NCBI GenBank assembly: GCA_964350495.1
Contig: CAYGKG010000004.1
Location: forward strand, 1,900 to 65,899
Direction: 5' to 3'
Origin: an uncultured Alphaproteobacteria bacterium
Lineage (GTDB): Bacteria > Pseudomonadota > Alphaproteobacteria > SHVP01
DNA: 64,000 bases
Shown here one piece after another: positions 25,816 to 31,174 of this stretch. Below the pieces are notes generated by a model. That model was not told where the DNA came from and searched no databases. It saw only the letters and a program-made list of their open reading frames with translations. Position numbers and translations under genes: made by a program. The number at the start of each line of letters is the position of its first letter. Within the stretch, counting starts at the first letter, position 1.

Positions 25816-26619
25816 TCATGCTTCGAGCCATTCGGTGGCCGATCCGTCGGTAAGGAAGCAGGCTGCGGCGAGACGTCCCCCGAAACCGCATCCGGCATCG
25901 ACGGTTGCAGTCCATTGATTCATCGCTAAGCCGGCATGGCGCCGATCGTAGCCACGGACGATCATCTTGACGTCGCCATACGGCGCATCGATTGCGCTGA
26001 AATATCCCGATCCCCACCAAAAAGTATCGCCCTGTTGGGACAAGGGACGGTGGGGGTCGATGCCGGCATGGACAAAGAGAAGCCGCCCGTTTTCGGTGAA
26101 GGCTGCCCGCTTCACGCTATTGAGAAGGTCGTCGTGACCGGGACGGCGCTGGGCACTGGTCCGGAGAGCATTGGTCCAGCGGGTAATTGCGATGGCGCCC
26201 TCGCCAAGCAACGTGCGGGCTTCGTCGGCGCGACCGCCGTAGGCTTGAAGGGTGGCCTCGACTCCCTGCTGCATCATCCATTCGAAGACCTCCCGTGGAT
26301 TGGGGGCGAACTGGATCTGAAGCAGCTTGTTCCACATTTCCTCTTGCGAGCCACGCAGGTACACGAAGTCGCCGGATTCCATCCCTGGGGCAAACACCGA
26401 ACGCCGAAAGGCCAAAACCTCGTCAAGCGTCTCAAGAATACTGTCGCCGTAACCGAGCAGGTTGCCGAGGTAAACAAAGCGGTCGCCACGCTGGGTCCGC
26501 GTCGCGATCTCGCTATGAAGTTTTTTCAATTTTTCGGCGTCGCCATGAATGGCGCCGATTGCCCAGACGCGCCGGACCGCCGTCAGTTTCCCGTAGACGT
26601 CACTGTCGACGTCAATCAT
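25816..26619 (-). CDS. Metallophosphoesterase (calcineurin-like Ser/Thr phosphatase/ApaH-like)
   Basis: Calcineurin-like metal-ligand motifs are present (IGAIHGD, GNLLGYGD, and later His-containing motifs). Confidence 0.7.
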   Translation of the reverse strand: MIDVDSDVYGKLTAVRRVWAIGAIHGDAEKLKKLHSEIATRTQRGDRFVYLGNLLGYGDSILETLDEVLAFRRSVFAPGMESGDFVYLRGSQEEMWNKLLQIQFAPNPREVFEWMMQQGVEATLQAYGGRADEARTLLGEGAIAITRWTNALRTSAQRRPGHDDLLNSVKRAAFTENGRLLFVHAGIDPHRPLSQQGDTFWWGSGYFSAIDAPYGDVKMIVRGYDRRHAGLAMNQWTATVDAGCGFGGRLAAACFLTDGSATEWLEA

Positions 26620-26714: not shown

Positions 26715-27542
26715 CTATGCTGCCTGGAGGACTGCCTGCAACCGTTCCTGAGCCGCATCCTCGTCGATCTTCTCGACTGCGGCGACCTCGCGGACCAAGC
26801 GATCAAGCGCAGCCTCGTAGATTTGTCGCTCGCTGTAGGATTGTTCGGGCTGGTTGGCATTTCGGTGGAGGTCTCTAACCACTTCGGCGATGGAAATCGG
26901 ATCGCCGGAATTGATCTTGGCTTCGTATTCCTGTGCCCGTCGGCTCCACATCGTCCGTTTGACCCGTGCGCGGCCCTTGAGCGTCGTCATGGCGTCTTCC
27001 ATGACCTTTGGGGTGGCGAGTTTCCTCATCCCCGTAGTGTCTACCTTTGCGACCGGAACCCGCAAAATCATTTTGTCCTTGTCGAACTCGACGACAAACA
27101 TCTCCAAATGAATACCGGAGATCTCTTTGTCCTCGATCGCTGTGATCTTTCCTACACCGTGGGTGGGATAGACCACGAAGTCGTTGACCGCGAAGGGTAG
27201 TTTGCGCTTTGCCTTGTCGGCTTTCACTGGCGTCACATTGGCTCCGGTTCGGGGCGGGGTCGGTTGCGGGCTTGGCGGTTTCTTGGGTGCACTCGGGGCA
27301 GCTTTTTTTGGGATGGCTTTTGGCGCGGCCTTCGGGGCCGGTCGCTTTGCCGCGGTGGGTGTCGTTTTCGGTCTGGCGGCGGGCTTCTTCTTTTTGGATG
27401 CGGCAGCGTTGGCCGGTTTCGATTTTGGCGGGCTCGGCTTTTTCTTTGTTGAAGCTGCCTTTTTCTTGGGTGCAGCTGGTTTCTTTTTTGCCGCCTTCTT
27501 CTTGCTTCCTGCCATCTCTCGGCCCCATTCAGTGCGCGGCAC
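26715..27542 (-). CDS. cdnL: CarD/CdnL-family RNAP-binding transcription regulator with a Lys/Ala/Pro-rich N-terminal extension
   Basis: The C-terminal ~165 aa is a canonical CdnL (FAVNDFVVYPTHGVGKITAIEDKEISGIHLEMFVVEF... plus a C-terminal helical domain). The N-terminal ~110 aa is MAGSKKKAAKKKPAAPKKKAASTKKKPSPPKSKPANAAASKKKKPAARPK..., resembling a histone-H1 tail. It lies downstream of fdxA, as is typical in alphaproteobacteria. Confidence 0.8.
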   Translation of the reverse strand: MPRTEWGREMAGSKKKAAKKKPAAPKKKAASTKKKPSPPKSKPANAAASKKKKPAARPKTTPTAAKRPAPKAAPKAIPKKAAPSAPKKPPSPQPTPPRTGANVTPVKADKAKRKLPFAVNDFVVYPTHGVGKITAIEDKEISGIHLEMFVVEFDKDKMILRVPVAKVDTTGMRKLATPKVMEDAMTTLKGRARVKRTMWSRRAQEYEAKINSGDPISIAEVVRDLHRNANQPEQSYSERQIYEAALDRLVREVAAVEKIDEDAAQERLQAVLQAA

Positions 27543-27734
27543 TGCCTGCCAGCCGCAGCCGGATCTCCGTTAGGGACTTACCCCGGGAGAGCCTGTGTCC
27601 TGCATTGGGAGGCACGAGAAGCCGCGAATCCGATCCTCAGATCGCTGGATGTACCACAGAAGGCAGTTCAGTGCCACGTCCGGGCCTGCGCTGCACGCCT
27701 AGCGGAATGCAGCGTGGGCCGCAATCGGGGTCGT

Positions 27735-28070
27735 TCAGGAGCCGCCCGGATTGGCTGAGAAGTATTTATCGAATTTTCCAGCAGCACCGCGGAAATCGGC
27801 TTCATCTGCCGGAACGTCGCCTTTTTGGGTGATATTCGGCCATTTCGCCGAATATTCCGTGTTGAGTTCGATCCAGGGTTTGGACTGGTCGTCGGTGTCG
27901 GGGAGAATCGCCTCAACCGGGCACTCGGGCTCGCAGACCCCGCAGTCGATGCACTCGTCGGGGTTGATGACCAGCATCACCTCGCCCTCGTAGAAGCAGT
28001 CCACCGGGCATACCTCGACACAATCTTGCAACTTGCACTTAATGCAGGCGTCGTTAACTACGTACGTCAT
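27735..28070 (-). CDS. fdxA: 7Fe ferredoxin ([3Fe-4S][4Fe-4S], FdxA type)
   Basis: [29 protein letters not shown]...[16 protein letters not shown] carries both Cys clusters of Azotobacter-type FdxA. Confidence 0.9.
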
Positions 28071-28152: not shown

Positions 28153-28611
28153 TCACTTGAGGCCGAGGCGCTGGCGAACGCGGAGCCGGGCGCTGCCCGA
28201 TTCTTGATCGGTCACGTAGATGAGTCCGGCGACGCGACGCATTAGGTTCGCCTCAAACGCGTGCTCCTCGCCGTCGGCGAAGACGACTTCCCAAAGCATC
28301 TCGAGAAGCGCGATTCGCTCCTCATGACCGGTGTGTTCTTTGATGTCGCGGGTGAAACGAAGGATTTGATTGGTATTCTCTTCCGCCGCGCGCGCGTCCT
28401 CAAGCAATGTCTTGAGGTCCGCCTGATTCAGATCGAAGCGCCGGACCAGGAGGTCGGCGATAACCTGTTCTTCGGCGGGCTCGATTTCCCCGTCGAGTGC
28501 CGCAGCGTGGAAGAGCAAGGCGGCAATGGCGATCTGTCGCGCCTCCGGATTGTCGCTCATCTCTTTCGATGGGGAGGGAGCCTCGAAGAGGCGGCGGAGG
28601 CGATCAAGCAT
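28153..28611 (-). CDS. TerB-like (tellurite-resistance TerB family) protein
   Basis: 152-aa helical protein with paired acidic TerB-like motifs ([20 protein letters not shown] and [18 protein letters not shown]). Confidence 0.6.
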
Positions 28612-28642
28612 GGCGCGGTGGTATCAGCCCACCGGATGAAGA

Positions 28643-31174
28643 TCAAGATTGGGTAACGCGACGGTCGTTCCGCTTTGGCCCTTGGGCTCCGGACTTGCCG
28701 GGGTAGAGTTCTCGGAGGATCGCAAAGGGCGAGGGGGCTGGCGCCGCCTGGGTCGATTTTCGATTGCGGTTCTCGCGCCGACGACCCGGCGACGGCGCCA
28801 GCGAGAAAAGTCCCGCGGTCGCCCTGGATTGCCGGTACCCGACAAATTCCATGGCCCACGGGAAATCGCTGCGGGGGAATCCTACGAGGGACAGAAGTTG
28901 AGGGCTTTCGCGGACGCTCGGACCAATATCCGCTAGCGCCCGGGCGAGGCGTTCGAGCGCGTCGACACGGACGGCGCGATTATGGAGGCGCCAGTAGCCA
29001 CATGCTTTGAGCAGCTCGTCGTCAGCACCTCGGAGCGCTTCGAACGACACTCTCCCGGCCGGCAGGTCTGGGACCGTCCGACCGTGGAAAGCGCATGAAA
29101 GTTCCAGTGTCAGGGCGGTGCGCTTCTGTTTCAGCATTGACGGCAGGAAGACGAAGTGGCGCCCCAATGTTATCCCGAGACCTTTGAGTTGCTTTTTCTC
29201 GAGCGGCGACAAGTCTGCGAGCAAATCCGCGATTTCCGTTGCGCGAACGAACCCGAAGCTTTCGACGAGTTGATAGGCCAAGCCACGGCACGCCCCTTTG
29301 AAGTCGATCCGGTCGAGTTGAATCAACGGCGCAAGAACGGTCGAGATGTATTGGCCTAGCCATTGCGCAATCCGCGCCTGGACAAGCGATCGACGGTGGC
29401 CGTCGAGCGTGGCGTCATCGTCAACAAGGTCGATCGAGGGGCGAAGCGGGTGGTCGCCGCGGATGAGACGCGCGATCAACGCACCACGCCACCAAATGCC
29501 GCTGGCTTTGAGATCGAAGGGATCGGCATCGTCGGACAGGATCGCTCCTGCGCGCCGCTCTACTTCTGACCGGAGTTCGCGGCGAATCGCTTTGCCATCG
29601 GCGGCCGTTAGGCTGACGGACGGCGAGAATTTCAATCCTTGCAGTCGGCCGACGACGGCGCCGTCGACGGCGACCACATCGTCTGGGTCCACGCGGACCG
29701 CAAGCGTGCCCGCCTCGCGAAGCCGGCGCAGGGTGGCGACATGGTGACGATCGACAAACCGCTGGGTCAGTCGTGCATGCAGAGCATCGGATAAGCGGTC
29801 CTCGACCGCGATGGCGCGCGCCCGCCAATGCCCTGCGTTTTCGATCCAATCTCGTTGGTGGGCGACGTAGGTCCAGGTCCGGATATGGGCGAGGCGGGCT
29901 TGCAGCGTGTCGATATCTCCGGCCGTACGGTCGAGACGTTCGACGTTGCGAGCGAGCAAGTCGTCGGGCAGGCGGCGCGAAGTGCCGGCGAGATAGCGAA
30001 AAATCTGGCCAAGCAAGTTGGCATGGGATTCGTGCAGCATCTGCTGAAAATCGGGAACGGTGCAGACCTGCCATAACAGAGAGACATTGGTGGGCGAGCG
30101 CGCTGCTTGGGCGATATCTGGCTCGCGGTAAAGGCTACGCAAGGTTTGGATGTCGGACGCTTCATGGGCCGGGCGCAGGAAGTTCTTGCGCGGTGGCGCC
30201 TCGAGACTCGTGATCAGTCCCGGAACGGACGAGAAGTCGAGGCTGGCGTTACGATACCGAAGCTGGGTTAGTGCGGGAAAGCTGTGCGACTCGATCGCAT
30301 TCACCAAATCGTCTTCGAAGGGTTCGGCTTCCCCGGTCGTGCCGAAGGTGCCGGGGTTTAGGTACCGTCCGGCGCGACCGGCAACCTGTGCGACCTCTGC
30401 CGTGGTTAGCCGCCGTTCGATTTGTCCGTCGAACTTGTGGCGCGCCGCAAATGCGACATGATCGATACCAAGGTTGAGGCCCATACCAACGGCATCGGTG
30501 GCGACAAGATAGTCTACTTCCCCGGCTTCAAACATGGCGACCTGGGCGTTTCGGGTGCGCGGACTCAGCGCCCCCATGACAACGGCGGCGCCGCCTTTCT
30601 GGCGGCGCAGGACTTCGGCGATCGCGTATACGTCCTCTGCGCGATAGGCGATGACCGCAGACCGTCTGGGCAACCGGGAAAGTTTGTGATGCCCGACGAA
30701 GCTGAGGCGAGAGAGCCGCGGTCGACCATCGACCCGAGCTCCTGGAATTAGGCGCTTAAGGAGCGGGCGAATGGTATCTGCACCGAGGAACATTGTCTCG
30801 TGAGTGCCTCGCGCTGAAATTAGGCGATCGGTAAACGTGTGCCCGCGGTCCGGATCGGCCGCTAGCTGGATTTCGTCGACTGCTAGGAACTCCACAGGGA
30901 CTGACGTCGGCATGGCTTCGACGGTGCACACCCAAAAGCGGGGCGCGCGCGGTACTAGGCGTTCTTCGCCGGTCACTAGGGCGACGTGATCGCCCCCGAT
31001 CTGACTAACAACGCGGTCGAAGACCTCGCGGGCGAGAAGCCGGAGCGGCAGTCCGATCATGCCGGTGCGGTGGGCGAGCATCCGCTCGACCGCCAGGTGG
31101 GTTTTCCCGGTATTTGTCGGCCCGAGGACGGCGACCACCGGTGCAGGGGTTTCAAGGTCTATGGGCCGCGTCAT
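28643..31174 (-). CDS. SF2 ATP-dependent helicase, Suv3-like ("helicase-related protein")
   Basis: The Walker A motif GPTNTGKTH matches the Suv3-type GPTNSGKT. A DEIQ (DExx) box and further helicase motifs (VATDAVGMGLNL, QVAGRAGR) are present, followed by a long C-terminal extension. Confidence 0.7.
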   Translation of the reverse strand: MTRPIDLETPAPVVAVLGPTNTGKTHLAVERMLAHRTGMIGLPLRLLAREVFDRVVSQIGGDHVALVTGEERLVPRAPRFWVCTVEAMPTSVPVEFLAVDEIQLAADPDRGHTFTDRLISARGTHETMFLGADTIRPLLKRLIPGARVDGRPRLSRLSFVGHHKLSRLPRRSAVIAYRAEDVYAIAEVLRRQKGGAAVVMGALSPRTRNAQVAMFEAGEVDYLVATDAVGMGLNLGIDHVAFAARHKFDGQIERRLTTAEVAQVAGRAGRYLNPGTFGTTGEAEPFEDDLVNAIESHSFPALTQLRYRNASLDFSSVPGLITSLEAPPRKNFLRPAHEASDIQTLRSLYREPDIAQAARSPTNVSLLWQVCTVPDFQQMLHESHANLLGQIFRYLAGTSRRLPDDLLARNVERLDRTAGDIDTLQARLAHIRTWTYVAHQRDWIENAGHWRARAIAVEDRLSDALHARLTQRFVDRHHVATLRRLREAGTLAVRVDPDDVVAVDGAVVGRLQGLKFSPSVSLTAADGKAIRRELRSEVERRAGAILSDDADPFDLKASGIWWRGALIARLIRGDHPLRPSIDLVDDDATLDGHRRSLVQARIAQWLGQYISTVLAPLIQLDRIDFKGACRGLAYQLVESFGFVRATEIADLLADLSPLEKKQLKGLGITLGRHFVFLPSMLKQKRTALTLELSCAFHGRTVPDLPAGRVSFEALRGADDELLKACGYWRLHNRAVRVDALERLARALADIGPSVRESPQLLSLVGFPRSDFPWAMEFVGYRQSRATAGLFSLAPSPGRRRENRNRKSTQAAPAPSPFAILRELYPGKSGAQGPKRNDRRVTQS

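Follow-up and report, generated by a model that had tools for sequence, protein, structure and literature searches.

On the minus strand of a 64,000-nucleotide (nt) stretch of DNA from an uncultured alphaproteobacterium (the window hereafter), we identified a cdnL gene whose product joins a canonical CarD/CdnL core to a long N-terminal tail dominated by lysine, alanine, and proline (K/A/P). CdnL/CarD proteins are global, often essential factors setting open-complex stability at sigma-70 promoters, and the field regards CdnL as being recruited via RNA polymerase (RNAP) only, with no DNA-binding module of its own. We favor, with moderate confidence, the reading that the protein is an ordinary CdnL core carrying a translated, polycationic, disordered tail that acts as a nucleic-acid tether. 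The gene is one member of a widespread and unstudied architectural variant: a large, diverse, and undiscussed set of natural CdnLs bears polycationic N-tails of 50-380 residues, which would add a second anchoring mode and represent a natural experiment on disordered basic tails tuning a general transcription factor.

The encoded protein consists of a tail of 107 amino acids (aa) followed by a core of 159 aa (coordinates in Table 1). This C-terminal part matches the Pfam families CarD_TRCF_RID, the RNAP-interacting Tudor-like domain (RID), and CarD_C, the helical C-terminal domain (CTD); the first nt of the Tudor-like domain motif FAVNDFVVYPTHGVGKI lies at 27194. Sequence matches in the PDB comprise M. 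xanthus CdnL (2lwj, 2e-21), M. tuberculosis CarD (4kbm, 2e-18), a subunit of a Streptomyces complex, and Thermus CarD, in every case confined to residues 107-266 of the 266-aa protein. In the AlphaFold2 model, the core shows the expected beta-sheet and helical architecture with a predicted local distance difference test score (pLDDT) of about 80-88 (around 83 for the RID strands). The best Foldseek matches of the model are CarD/CdnL without exception, and the Tudor-like domain alone superimposes on the CarD RID with a template modeling (TM) score of 0.91 and a root-mean-square deviation of 1.0 Å. Two motifs are invariant among 30 homologs, namely R152-V153-P154 (27054-27062) and Trp190 (26946-26948) followed by S-R-R. 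The former corresponds to the residues mutated in Caulobacter CdnL, where V39, R52, and P54 were tested for beta-subunit contact (PMC5324124), so that binding of the window protein to the RNAP beta1-lobe is predicted; the conserved Trp is the minor-groove wedge in the Thermus complex of CarD with the open promoter complex (PMC4593161), and its role is described likewise in PMC4374960. The protein stops 7 residues past the CarD_C domain with Ala-Ala, which is also found at the C-terminus of most relatives. This ending makes Caulobacter CdnL a ClpXP-dependent substrate, and AA or VA is present in more than 80% of alphaproteobacterial homologs (PMC5324124). The core has a net charge of -2 and a pI of 6.0 and is 65-82% identical to other alphaproteobacterial CdnLs; a scan of genome contigs gave a best species-representative match of 79% core identity, with Rhodospirillales-like neighbors. 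Gene order is conserved in all relatives (Suv3-like helicase, TerB, 7Fe ferredoxin fdxA, cdnL, a 267-aa protein, M48 peptidase). Because of the Pfam, PDB, and Foldseek matches, the invariant RVP and W190-S-R-R motifs, the C-terminal AA, and this synteny, the gene is, by comparison, the cdnL of an alphaproteobacterium and a bona fide member of the CdnL/CarD family. This agrees with the preliminary description of the locus, made from the letters alone, as far as the C-terminal part is concerned.

The longest open reading frame (ORF) at the locus, 26715..27542 (-), has 275 aa counted from a GTG, and the preliminary description had started the protein there. Comparison with relatives places the true start at the ATG at 27515 (MAGSKKK...), giving a protein of 266 aa. 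All close relatives, including the closest homolog (97% identical), begin with M-A-x-x-K-K-K-A-A-K-K-K; in four of six relatives (L001, L005, L007, and L009), the conserved ATG is preceded by a stop codon at a distance of six codons; and a 1-nt length difference between the window and L006 just upstream of the ATG puts the GTG at 27542 out of frame. The upstream stops and the L006 indel rule out this GTG as start. The K/A/P extension was thus rightly counted as part of the protein, with its start set 27 nt too far upstream.

The extension had also been considered unlikely to stay stop-free by chance, which did not hold. The coding strand of the tail contains only 4.4% T, no stop interrupts four of the six frames over its length, and mononucleotide shuffling of the tail yields a stop-free sequence in 25% of cases (P about 0.04 with whole-window composition). 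The shuffles and the six-frame check therefore disqualify the open frame as coding evidence, and the antisense frame overlapping the tail (Table 1) is rejected as a gene, being an artefact of the T-poor coding strand. A second antisense frame over the tail DNA is found on the plus strand of the window at 27209-27832.

Evidence for translation of the tail was obtained from relatives, which we ranked by core similarity using a core-only search with the tail left out of the query. The 21 proteins with a core at least 84% identical measure 257-288 aa, except for three annotated with 175-180 aa. Two of these three were checked on the DNA (L005 and L177): the frame is open for a further 93-103 codons upstream, and the re-read proteins begin with MAK(P/L)KKKAAKKK. 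Their short annotations are start-codon miscalls, and we infer the same for the third, P0020, because it begins at the same internal position as P0018. The tail is thus shared, in frame, by every relative whose core identity reaches 84% or more. The preliminary description had named an absent or out-of-frame extension in close relatives as refuting evidence; neither occurs in these relatives. Across 11-12 lineages, tail lengths differ by whole codons only, the sole indel that is not a multiple of three being the one upstream of the ATG in L006. The ratio of nonsynonymous to synonymous substitution rates (dN/dS, Nei-Gojobori) within the tail is 0.16 for the window versus L006 (dS 0.73, dN 0.12) and 0.44, based on few changes, for the window versus L004; core values range from 0.01 to 0.05. 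Among 11 clade members, the tail measures 98-126 aa and has a net charge of +30 to +39 with at most 4% acidic residues. Synonymous sites between the two subclades are saturated, yet tail length and charge are kept. Considering the preserved frame, the conserved ATG and start motif, the whole-codon indels, the dN/dS values, and the kept length and charge, comparative analysis indicates that the tail is translated. The pattern of change is that of a functional disordered region, with selection acting on length, charge, and K/A/P composition rather than on the exact sequence.

Annotations of this gene family deserve a separate remark. The gene is annotated from an internal GTG or ATG in P0018, P0020, P0021, and P0152; the same 90% protein clusters often contain both long and short cdnL calls; and spurious antisense genes of 125-141 aa are annotated over the tail DNA of L005 (2535-2912) and L177 (3-425). 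Such short calls and antisense genes over tails are a systematic annotation error in this family, and both need correction.

The tail consists of 28% K, 23% A, and 21.5% P (73% combined) with only 1% D+E, corresponding to a net charge of +33 and a pI of about 12. AlphaFold2 assigned a pLDDT below 50 and no secondary structure to residues 1-105, so that intrinsic disorder is predicted for the tail. No other coding stretch in the 64 kb is rich in K/A/P, which speaks against such tails being a genome-wide habit. The description of the tail as histone H1-like was confirmed in terms of composition, that is, dominance of K/A/P, few acidic residues, and predicted disorder, features also shared with the C-terminal domain of linker histone H1. 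It failed in terms of homology: the tail matched no Pfam family at E up to 10, linker histone and HC2 (PF07382) included; the whole protein gave no match to the globular winged-helix domain of Linker_histone in Pfam at E up to 0.1; and a tail-only search of 5.8 billion proteins returned nothing at E ≤ 1e-3, presumably owing to composition correction. For one relative, P0025, a precomputed match to PF07382 exists. The likeness to H1, which has the winged-helix globular domain, is hence compositional only.

The window tail contains a single tandem duplication (Table 1), and recent ones occur in the tails of P0017, P0019, and L006 (among them KKKLVTA x 5, a 20-aa unit x 2, and KKAVSAK x 2 with PKPSA x 2). 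At the sequence level, the duplications in these three relatives demonstrate that slippage is still altering tail length. In L175 (MATKKKTTTKLPF...), a relative whose short form is genuine, the region upstream lacks K/A/P richness and fdxA lies at a distance of 361 nt; short forms look like both ends of the long tail joined together. This resemblance and the fresh duplications in several tails suggest that the tail probably grew as slippage lengthened the short basic peptide (MAxKKK...KLPF) present at the N-terminus of tail-less relatives.

In order to assess the distribution without bias for tails, the 80 species-representative genomes nearest to the core were selected by the core only. Their N-terminal extension has a median of 14.5 residues, and basic tails of 58-205 residues are found in 6-8 of the 80 genomes; Caulobacter, Magnetospirillum, Paracoccus, Sneathiella, and others have the short form. 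A core search of 1.84 billion cluster representatives returned 4373 homologs. Within the best 147 of these, the N-extension reaches at least 50 residues in 118, at least 100 in 98, and at least 200 in 65, with a maximum of 380, counts in which clustering at 50% identity inflates tailed versus short forms and some extensions may be over-extended gene calls. The tailed homologs among these 147 contain on average 20% K+R, 22% A, and 6% D+E. Basic N-tails on CdnL cores are hence common in metagenomes, not a peculiarity of the window genome, and span 12 to 380 aa across homologs; the database name of all tailed homologs is just "CarD family transcriptional regulator".

A large group of homologs (P0306, P0284, P0263, P0329, P0341, P0259, and others) carries basic, A/S/T-rich N-extensions of 300-380 residues, far longer than the window tail, with the common N-terminal motif M-x-S-x-K-K-x-x-K-S. 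C-terminal extensions of 42-225 residues, replacing or added to N-terminal ones, occur in about 20 of the best 147 core representatives (e.g., P0217, P0229, P0241, P0242, P0255, and P0260). In soil loci (L123, L127, L140, L142, L146, L149, and L162), a strong GGAAGGAG is located about 8 nt before an ATG giving MNAKKTTQRQG..., and the 57-aa "extension" of this clade, counted from the first upstream ATG, is probably not real. This strong Shine-Dalgarno (SD) site before the downstream ATG implies that tail censuses based on longest ORFs over-count.

Regarding function, the core would dock via its Tudor-like domain on the RNAP beta1-lobe, and the helical domain with its Trp wedge would stabilize the open promoter complex, as in the studied proteins. 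The tail would tether the protein to nucleic acid without sequence specificity, duplex DNA being the most likely ligand: leaving the Tudor domain near promoter DNA, the flexible chain of +33 could grip flanking duplex DNA or the nucleoid and thereby raise local concentration, occupancy, and dwell time of CdnL-RNAP at promoters. In the Thermus complex, the RID lies beside the upstream bubble edge, with RID-P13 about 5 Å from the DNA-contacting CTD (PMC4593161). DNA binding by the tail is plausible by analogy to myxobacterial CarD, in which an RNAP-binding module of the CarD type likewise carries a basic, intrinsically disordered segment. This segment is DNA-binding, and other basic disordered domains can take its place (PMC2919716, PMC4374960); it is a C-terminal HMGA/AT-hook domain in M. 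xanthus and a C-terminal H1-like domain in Anaeromyxobacter (Garcia-Heras et al. 2009, as cited in PMC2919716 and PMC4374960). By this analogy, we infer a comparable role for the window tail. The architectures differ, however: the window tail is N-terminal, the protein has no C-terminal HMGA-like or H1-like domain, no acidic segment, and no RGRP AT-hooks, and its core is an alphaproteobacterial CdnL orthologue rather than a CarD orthologue, implying neither a CarG partner nor a link to ECF-sigma factors. On account of the tail position, the missing AT-hooks and acidic segment, and the orthology of the core, the fusion is independent of, and convergent with, myxobacterial CarD.

Several points weigh against a DNA tether. 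The proposed DNA binding is by analogy, and no DNA-binding family matches the tail. CdnL was reported to reach promoters through RNAP and not through DNA (PMC4374960), and tail-less CdnLs function in Caulobacter, Rhodobacter, Myxococcus, and Mycobacterium. Adding a FLAG tag to the N-terminus of Caulobacter CdnL impaired the protein (PMC5324124), hence N-terminal additions are not automatically harmless. RNA and polyphosphate would be equally good ligands for such a tail, and AlgP, an H1-like K/A/P protein, acts on polyphosphate granules (PMC9239181). Finally, there is a conserved signal for an internal start, a hint that a form without the tail may be required in cells as well.

This signal, which the preliminary description had overlooked, became apparent when synonymous differences were measured along the gene in ten lineages. 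At the junction of tail and core, their fraction falls to 0.15 compared with a background of 0.53 ± 0.064 (z = -5.9; none of 5000 column permutations was as low). The dip is the only strong one along the gene and covers about 10 codons before and 7 codons after a GTG at 27236, with the center reading CGA ACC GGA G(CC/TA) AA(T/A/C) GTG ACG. This GTG lies 14 codons before the first Tudor-domain residue, and 9 of the 11 clade sequences retain the GGAG-N5-GTG arrangement. The codons fixed here are otherwise rare (usage elsewhere in brackets): GGA 8/8 (21%), GTG 8/8 (23%), ACG 8/8 (33%), CGA 6/6 (16%), and GTA 5/5 (8%). Pairing with the anti-SD amounts to -5.8 kcal/mol at the internal site, -4.7 at the ATG, and -6.4 at fdxA. 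No conserved RNA structure was found at the junction (-2.7 kcal/mol, no covariation), and a search of Rfam (E up to 1) returned nothing but a snoRNA match without meaning, located downstream of the gene, which speaks against a known RNA element in leader or tail.

We tentatively propose, as an extension of the tether reading, that one gene may give two proteins, a tailed CdnL from the ATG at 27515 and a tail-less CdnL of 173 aa from the GTG at 27236. The deep synonymous dip with its fixed rare codons, the unstructured junction, and an anti-SD pairing at least equal to that of the ATG are in line with this, as are the product start MTPVKADKAKRKLPF, which resembles genuine short CdnLs, and the choice of the internal start by gene callers in relatives (P0018, P0020, and P0152). 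In addition, a strong AAGGAG-type site occupies the equivalent position in the soil short-form clade; an in-frame start codon comes next, and an ATG a few codons on. However, the anti-SD pairing at the predicted second start ranks among the best 5-10% of in-frame positions and is not unique; the subclade L007/L170 has AAGGA 13 nt from the GTG, a poor spacing; and most long-tailed CdnLs of other clades are devoid of such a site. The constraint may instead serve a binding site for a small RNA or a protein, ribosome pausing, or an internal promoter. A survey for an SD plus start in metagenome contigs, with cores at most 74% identical among the matches listed, left a general rule that long-tailed CdnLs carry such a signal unsupported outside this clade.

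In-frame isoform pairs from internal translation starts are known for IF2 alpha/beta, ClpB, and the long and short forms of CheA. The window gene shares with them the conserved SD-like site plus start codon inside the ORF and the local synonymous suppression; unlike in these pairs, its internal start is a candidate only. For the CarD/CdnL family, our literature searches found no internal-start precedent. If true, the ratio of long to short isoform could tune the share of DNA-tethered CdnL. It is conceivable, although we hold this with the same reserve as the second start itself, that two isoforms and their ratio form a new control layer on open-complex stability and that tails make many alphaproteobacterial CdnLs nucleoid-associated, which would contradict the textbook distinction that CarD binds DNA and CdnL does not.

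A translated tail might also address a ligand other than DNA, such as polyphosphate or RNA (e.g., nascent rRNA), drive condensate formation, or work mainly through entropic effects, by keeping the protein soluble, or by modulating proteolysis, an alternative we regard as unlikely. A disordered chain of +33 binds any polyanion, selection acts on bulk charge and length and not on motifs, AlgP localizes to and spaces polyphosphate granules (PMC9239181), and CdnL levels are under proteolytic control (PMC5324124, PMC11034885). Against this stand the position of the tail beside promoter DNA, as set by the core (PMC4593161), and the action through DNA of the equivalent basic disordered domains of CarD (PMC4374960); the present results do not discriminate among ligands.

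Even less probable is that the tail represents a nearly neutral expansion of low complexity, tolerated but devoid of a specific role. Such an origin would fit the patchy occurrence (about 6-8 of 80 neighboring species), the hugely variable length (12 to 380 aa), the recent tandem duplications, and a tail evolving at least 10-fold faster than the core. It is at odds with the narrow bands of length (98-126 aa) and charge (+30 to +39) maintained despite saturated synonymous divergence and slippage-prone DNA, with acidic residues held at or below 4% and a dN/dS of 0.16-0.44, and with retention of the tail by every clade member whose core is at least 84% identical. That the tail is not made at all, the internal GTG being the sole start and the K/A/P-coding stretch a long 5' leader, is very improbable: the long 5' untranslated regions reported for alphaproteobacterial cdnL (Caulobacter, 233 nt; S. 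meliloti, 266 nt) together with extended intergenic regions before the gene (PMC5324124), a good SD with GTG at the junction, the short annotations of P0018, P0020, P0021, and P0152, and the cheapness of open frames in T-poor sequence would allow for it, but 12 lineages keep the ATG and MAxxKKK in frame with the core through many whole-codon indels, the only 1-nt indel falls before the ATG, charge and length are conserved at a dN/dS well below 1, and L175, whose short form is genuine, shows no K/A/P-type sequence upstream.

Returning to the tailed CdnL as a proposed nucleic-acid-tethered factor, its relation to described systems can be specified. The CdnLs of Caulobacter and M. xanthus and the "CarD" proteins of Mycobacterium and Thermus have the same Tudor-like RID and helical CTD with Trp wedge, and the window protein also contains the beta-lobe contact residues (RVP) and the C-terminal degron motif (AA). 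In contrast, studied or solved CdnL/CarD proteins comprise about 160-170 aa without a tail; the window protein adds an N-extension of 107 aa and +33 and possibly an internal second start. Instead of a standalone protein of ~160-170 aa without basic extension, it is thus a CdnL by its core with an atypical architecture. Further bacterial "H1-like" tails are known from mycobacterial HupB/HU, actinobacterial TopA with its lysine repeats, M. smegmatis Ku with its PAKKA repeats, Pseudomonas AlgP, and Chlamydia Hc2 (some of these examples in PMC3553676, PMC7398561, and PMC9239181). They resemble the window tail in composition, charge, and predicted disorder, and in the attachment to a nucleic-acid-related protein. 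Unlike the Hc2- and AlgP-type proteins with their regular short basic repeats (e.g., KPAA or pentapeptides), the window tail has no regular repeat unit apart from one 21-nt x 2 duplication, and no HC2 match. Its host domain is an RNAP-binding factor, in contrast to the DNA-binding or DNA-processing proteins of the HupB, TopA, and Ku type.

Literature searches for a description of basic N-terminal tails of CdnL, including CdnL papers since 2020, found no such paper. The Caulobacter CdnL studies mention no extension (PMC5324124, PMC6994171), a large CarD survey kept only matches of 120-200 aa (PMC4593161), and a 2010 survey defined the CdnL type by the absent DNA-binding domain and gave alphaproteobacterial lengths of 143-456 aa uncommented (PMC2919716). 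The tails were overlooked because the model species are devoid of them, because of the 120-200 aa limit, and because annotation pipelines often cut at the internal start.

Table 1. Features of the cdnL locus in window coordinates
Feature	Position	Strand	Basis
cdnL coding sequence, 266 aa + stop (stop codon 26715-26717)	26715..27515	-	ORF list; start set by comparison
Tail-coding region, residues 1-107	27195..27515	-	Composition, comparison, AlphaFold2
CarD_TRCF_RID, RNAP-interacting Tudor-like domain, residues 108-166	27018..27194	-	Pfam PF02559, E 6e-15
CarD_C, helical C-terminal domain, residues 175-259	26739..26993	-	Pfam PF21095, E 1e-25
C-terminal Ala-Ala	26718..26723	-	Sequence end ...LQAA
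Nine codons from GTG to the real ATG, outside the protein	27516..27542	-	Stops in relatives, L006 indel
Zone of suppressed synonymous variation, alignment columns about 108-127	27213..27266	-	Ten-lineage comparison
In-frame GGAG (27245-27242), 5 nt, GTG (27236-27234); candidate internal start of a 173-aa isoform, MTPVKADKAKRKLPF...	27234..27245	-	
21-nt x 2 tandem duplication in the tail, 7-aa unit APKKKAA / STKKKPS	27438..27478		Tandem Repeats Finder (TRF) score 61
Gly/Ala/Phe-rich open frame of 129 aa, antisense to the tail	27184..27573	+	ORF list, T-poor coding strand
Conserved upstream block CGTGGCAC-N12-TGTGGTACATC	27648..27678	-	Alignment of nine relatives

Upstream of the gene, a scan of the fdxA-cdnL interval found neither a consensus sigma-70 promoter nor an intrinsic terminator. 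A conserved block about 130-160 nt upstream of the ATG is nearly invariant among nine long- and short-form relatives and resembles an extended -10 element (TGnTAnnnn) in which position -7 is not T, making it a possible promoter. In Alphaproteobacteria, extended -10 elements without -7T were reported to be CarD-dependent (PMC8407463, PMC7703639), and CdnL/CarD was proposed to compensate the missing -7T in most -10 elements. If the block is a promoter, the mRNA would start near 27640 and include the whole tail, and cdnL itself may be a candidate for a CarD/CdnL-dependent, i.e., autoregulated, promoter.

Concerning the neighborhood, an S4-domain (Hsp15-like) gene of about 100-110 aa is situated between the Suv3-like helicase and TerB in L005, L007, and L170; it is absent from the window (28611-28643 compared) and not called in L001/L002. 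Downstream of cdnL, at a distance of 95 nt, the gene for the 267-aa protein (25816-26619, -) is syntenic in every relative examined. ApaH is a symmetrical bis(5'-nucleosyl)-tetraphosphatase, and the N-terminus of the 267-aa protein, which has no Pfam family, weakly matches it (NF001204, E 6e-7, 29 bits versus a cutoff of 176). The protein may be a diverged metallophosphoesterase functionally linked to cdnL.

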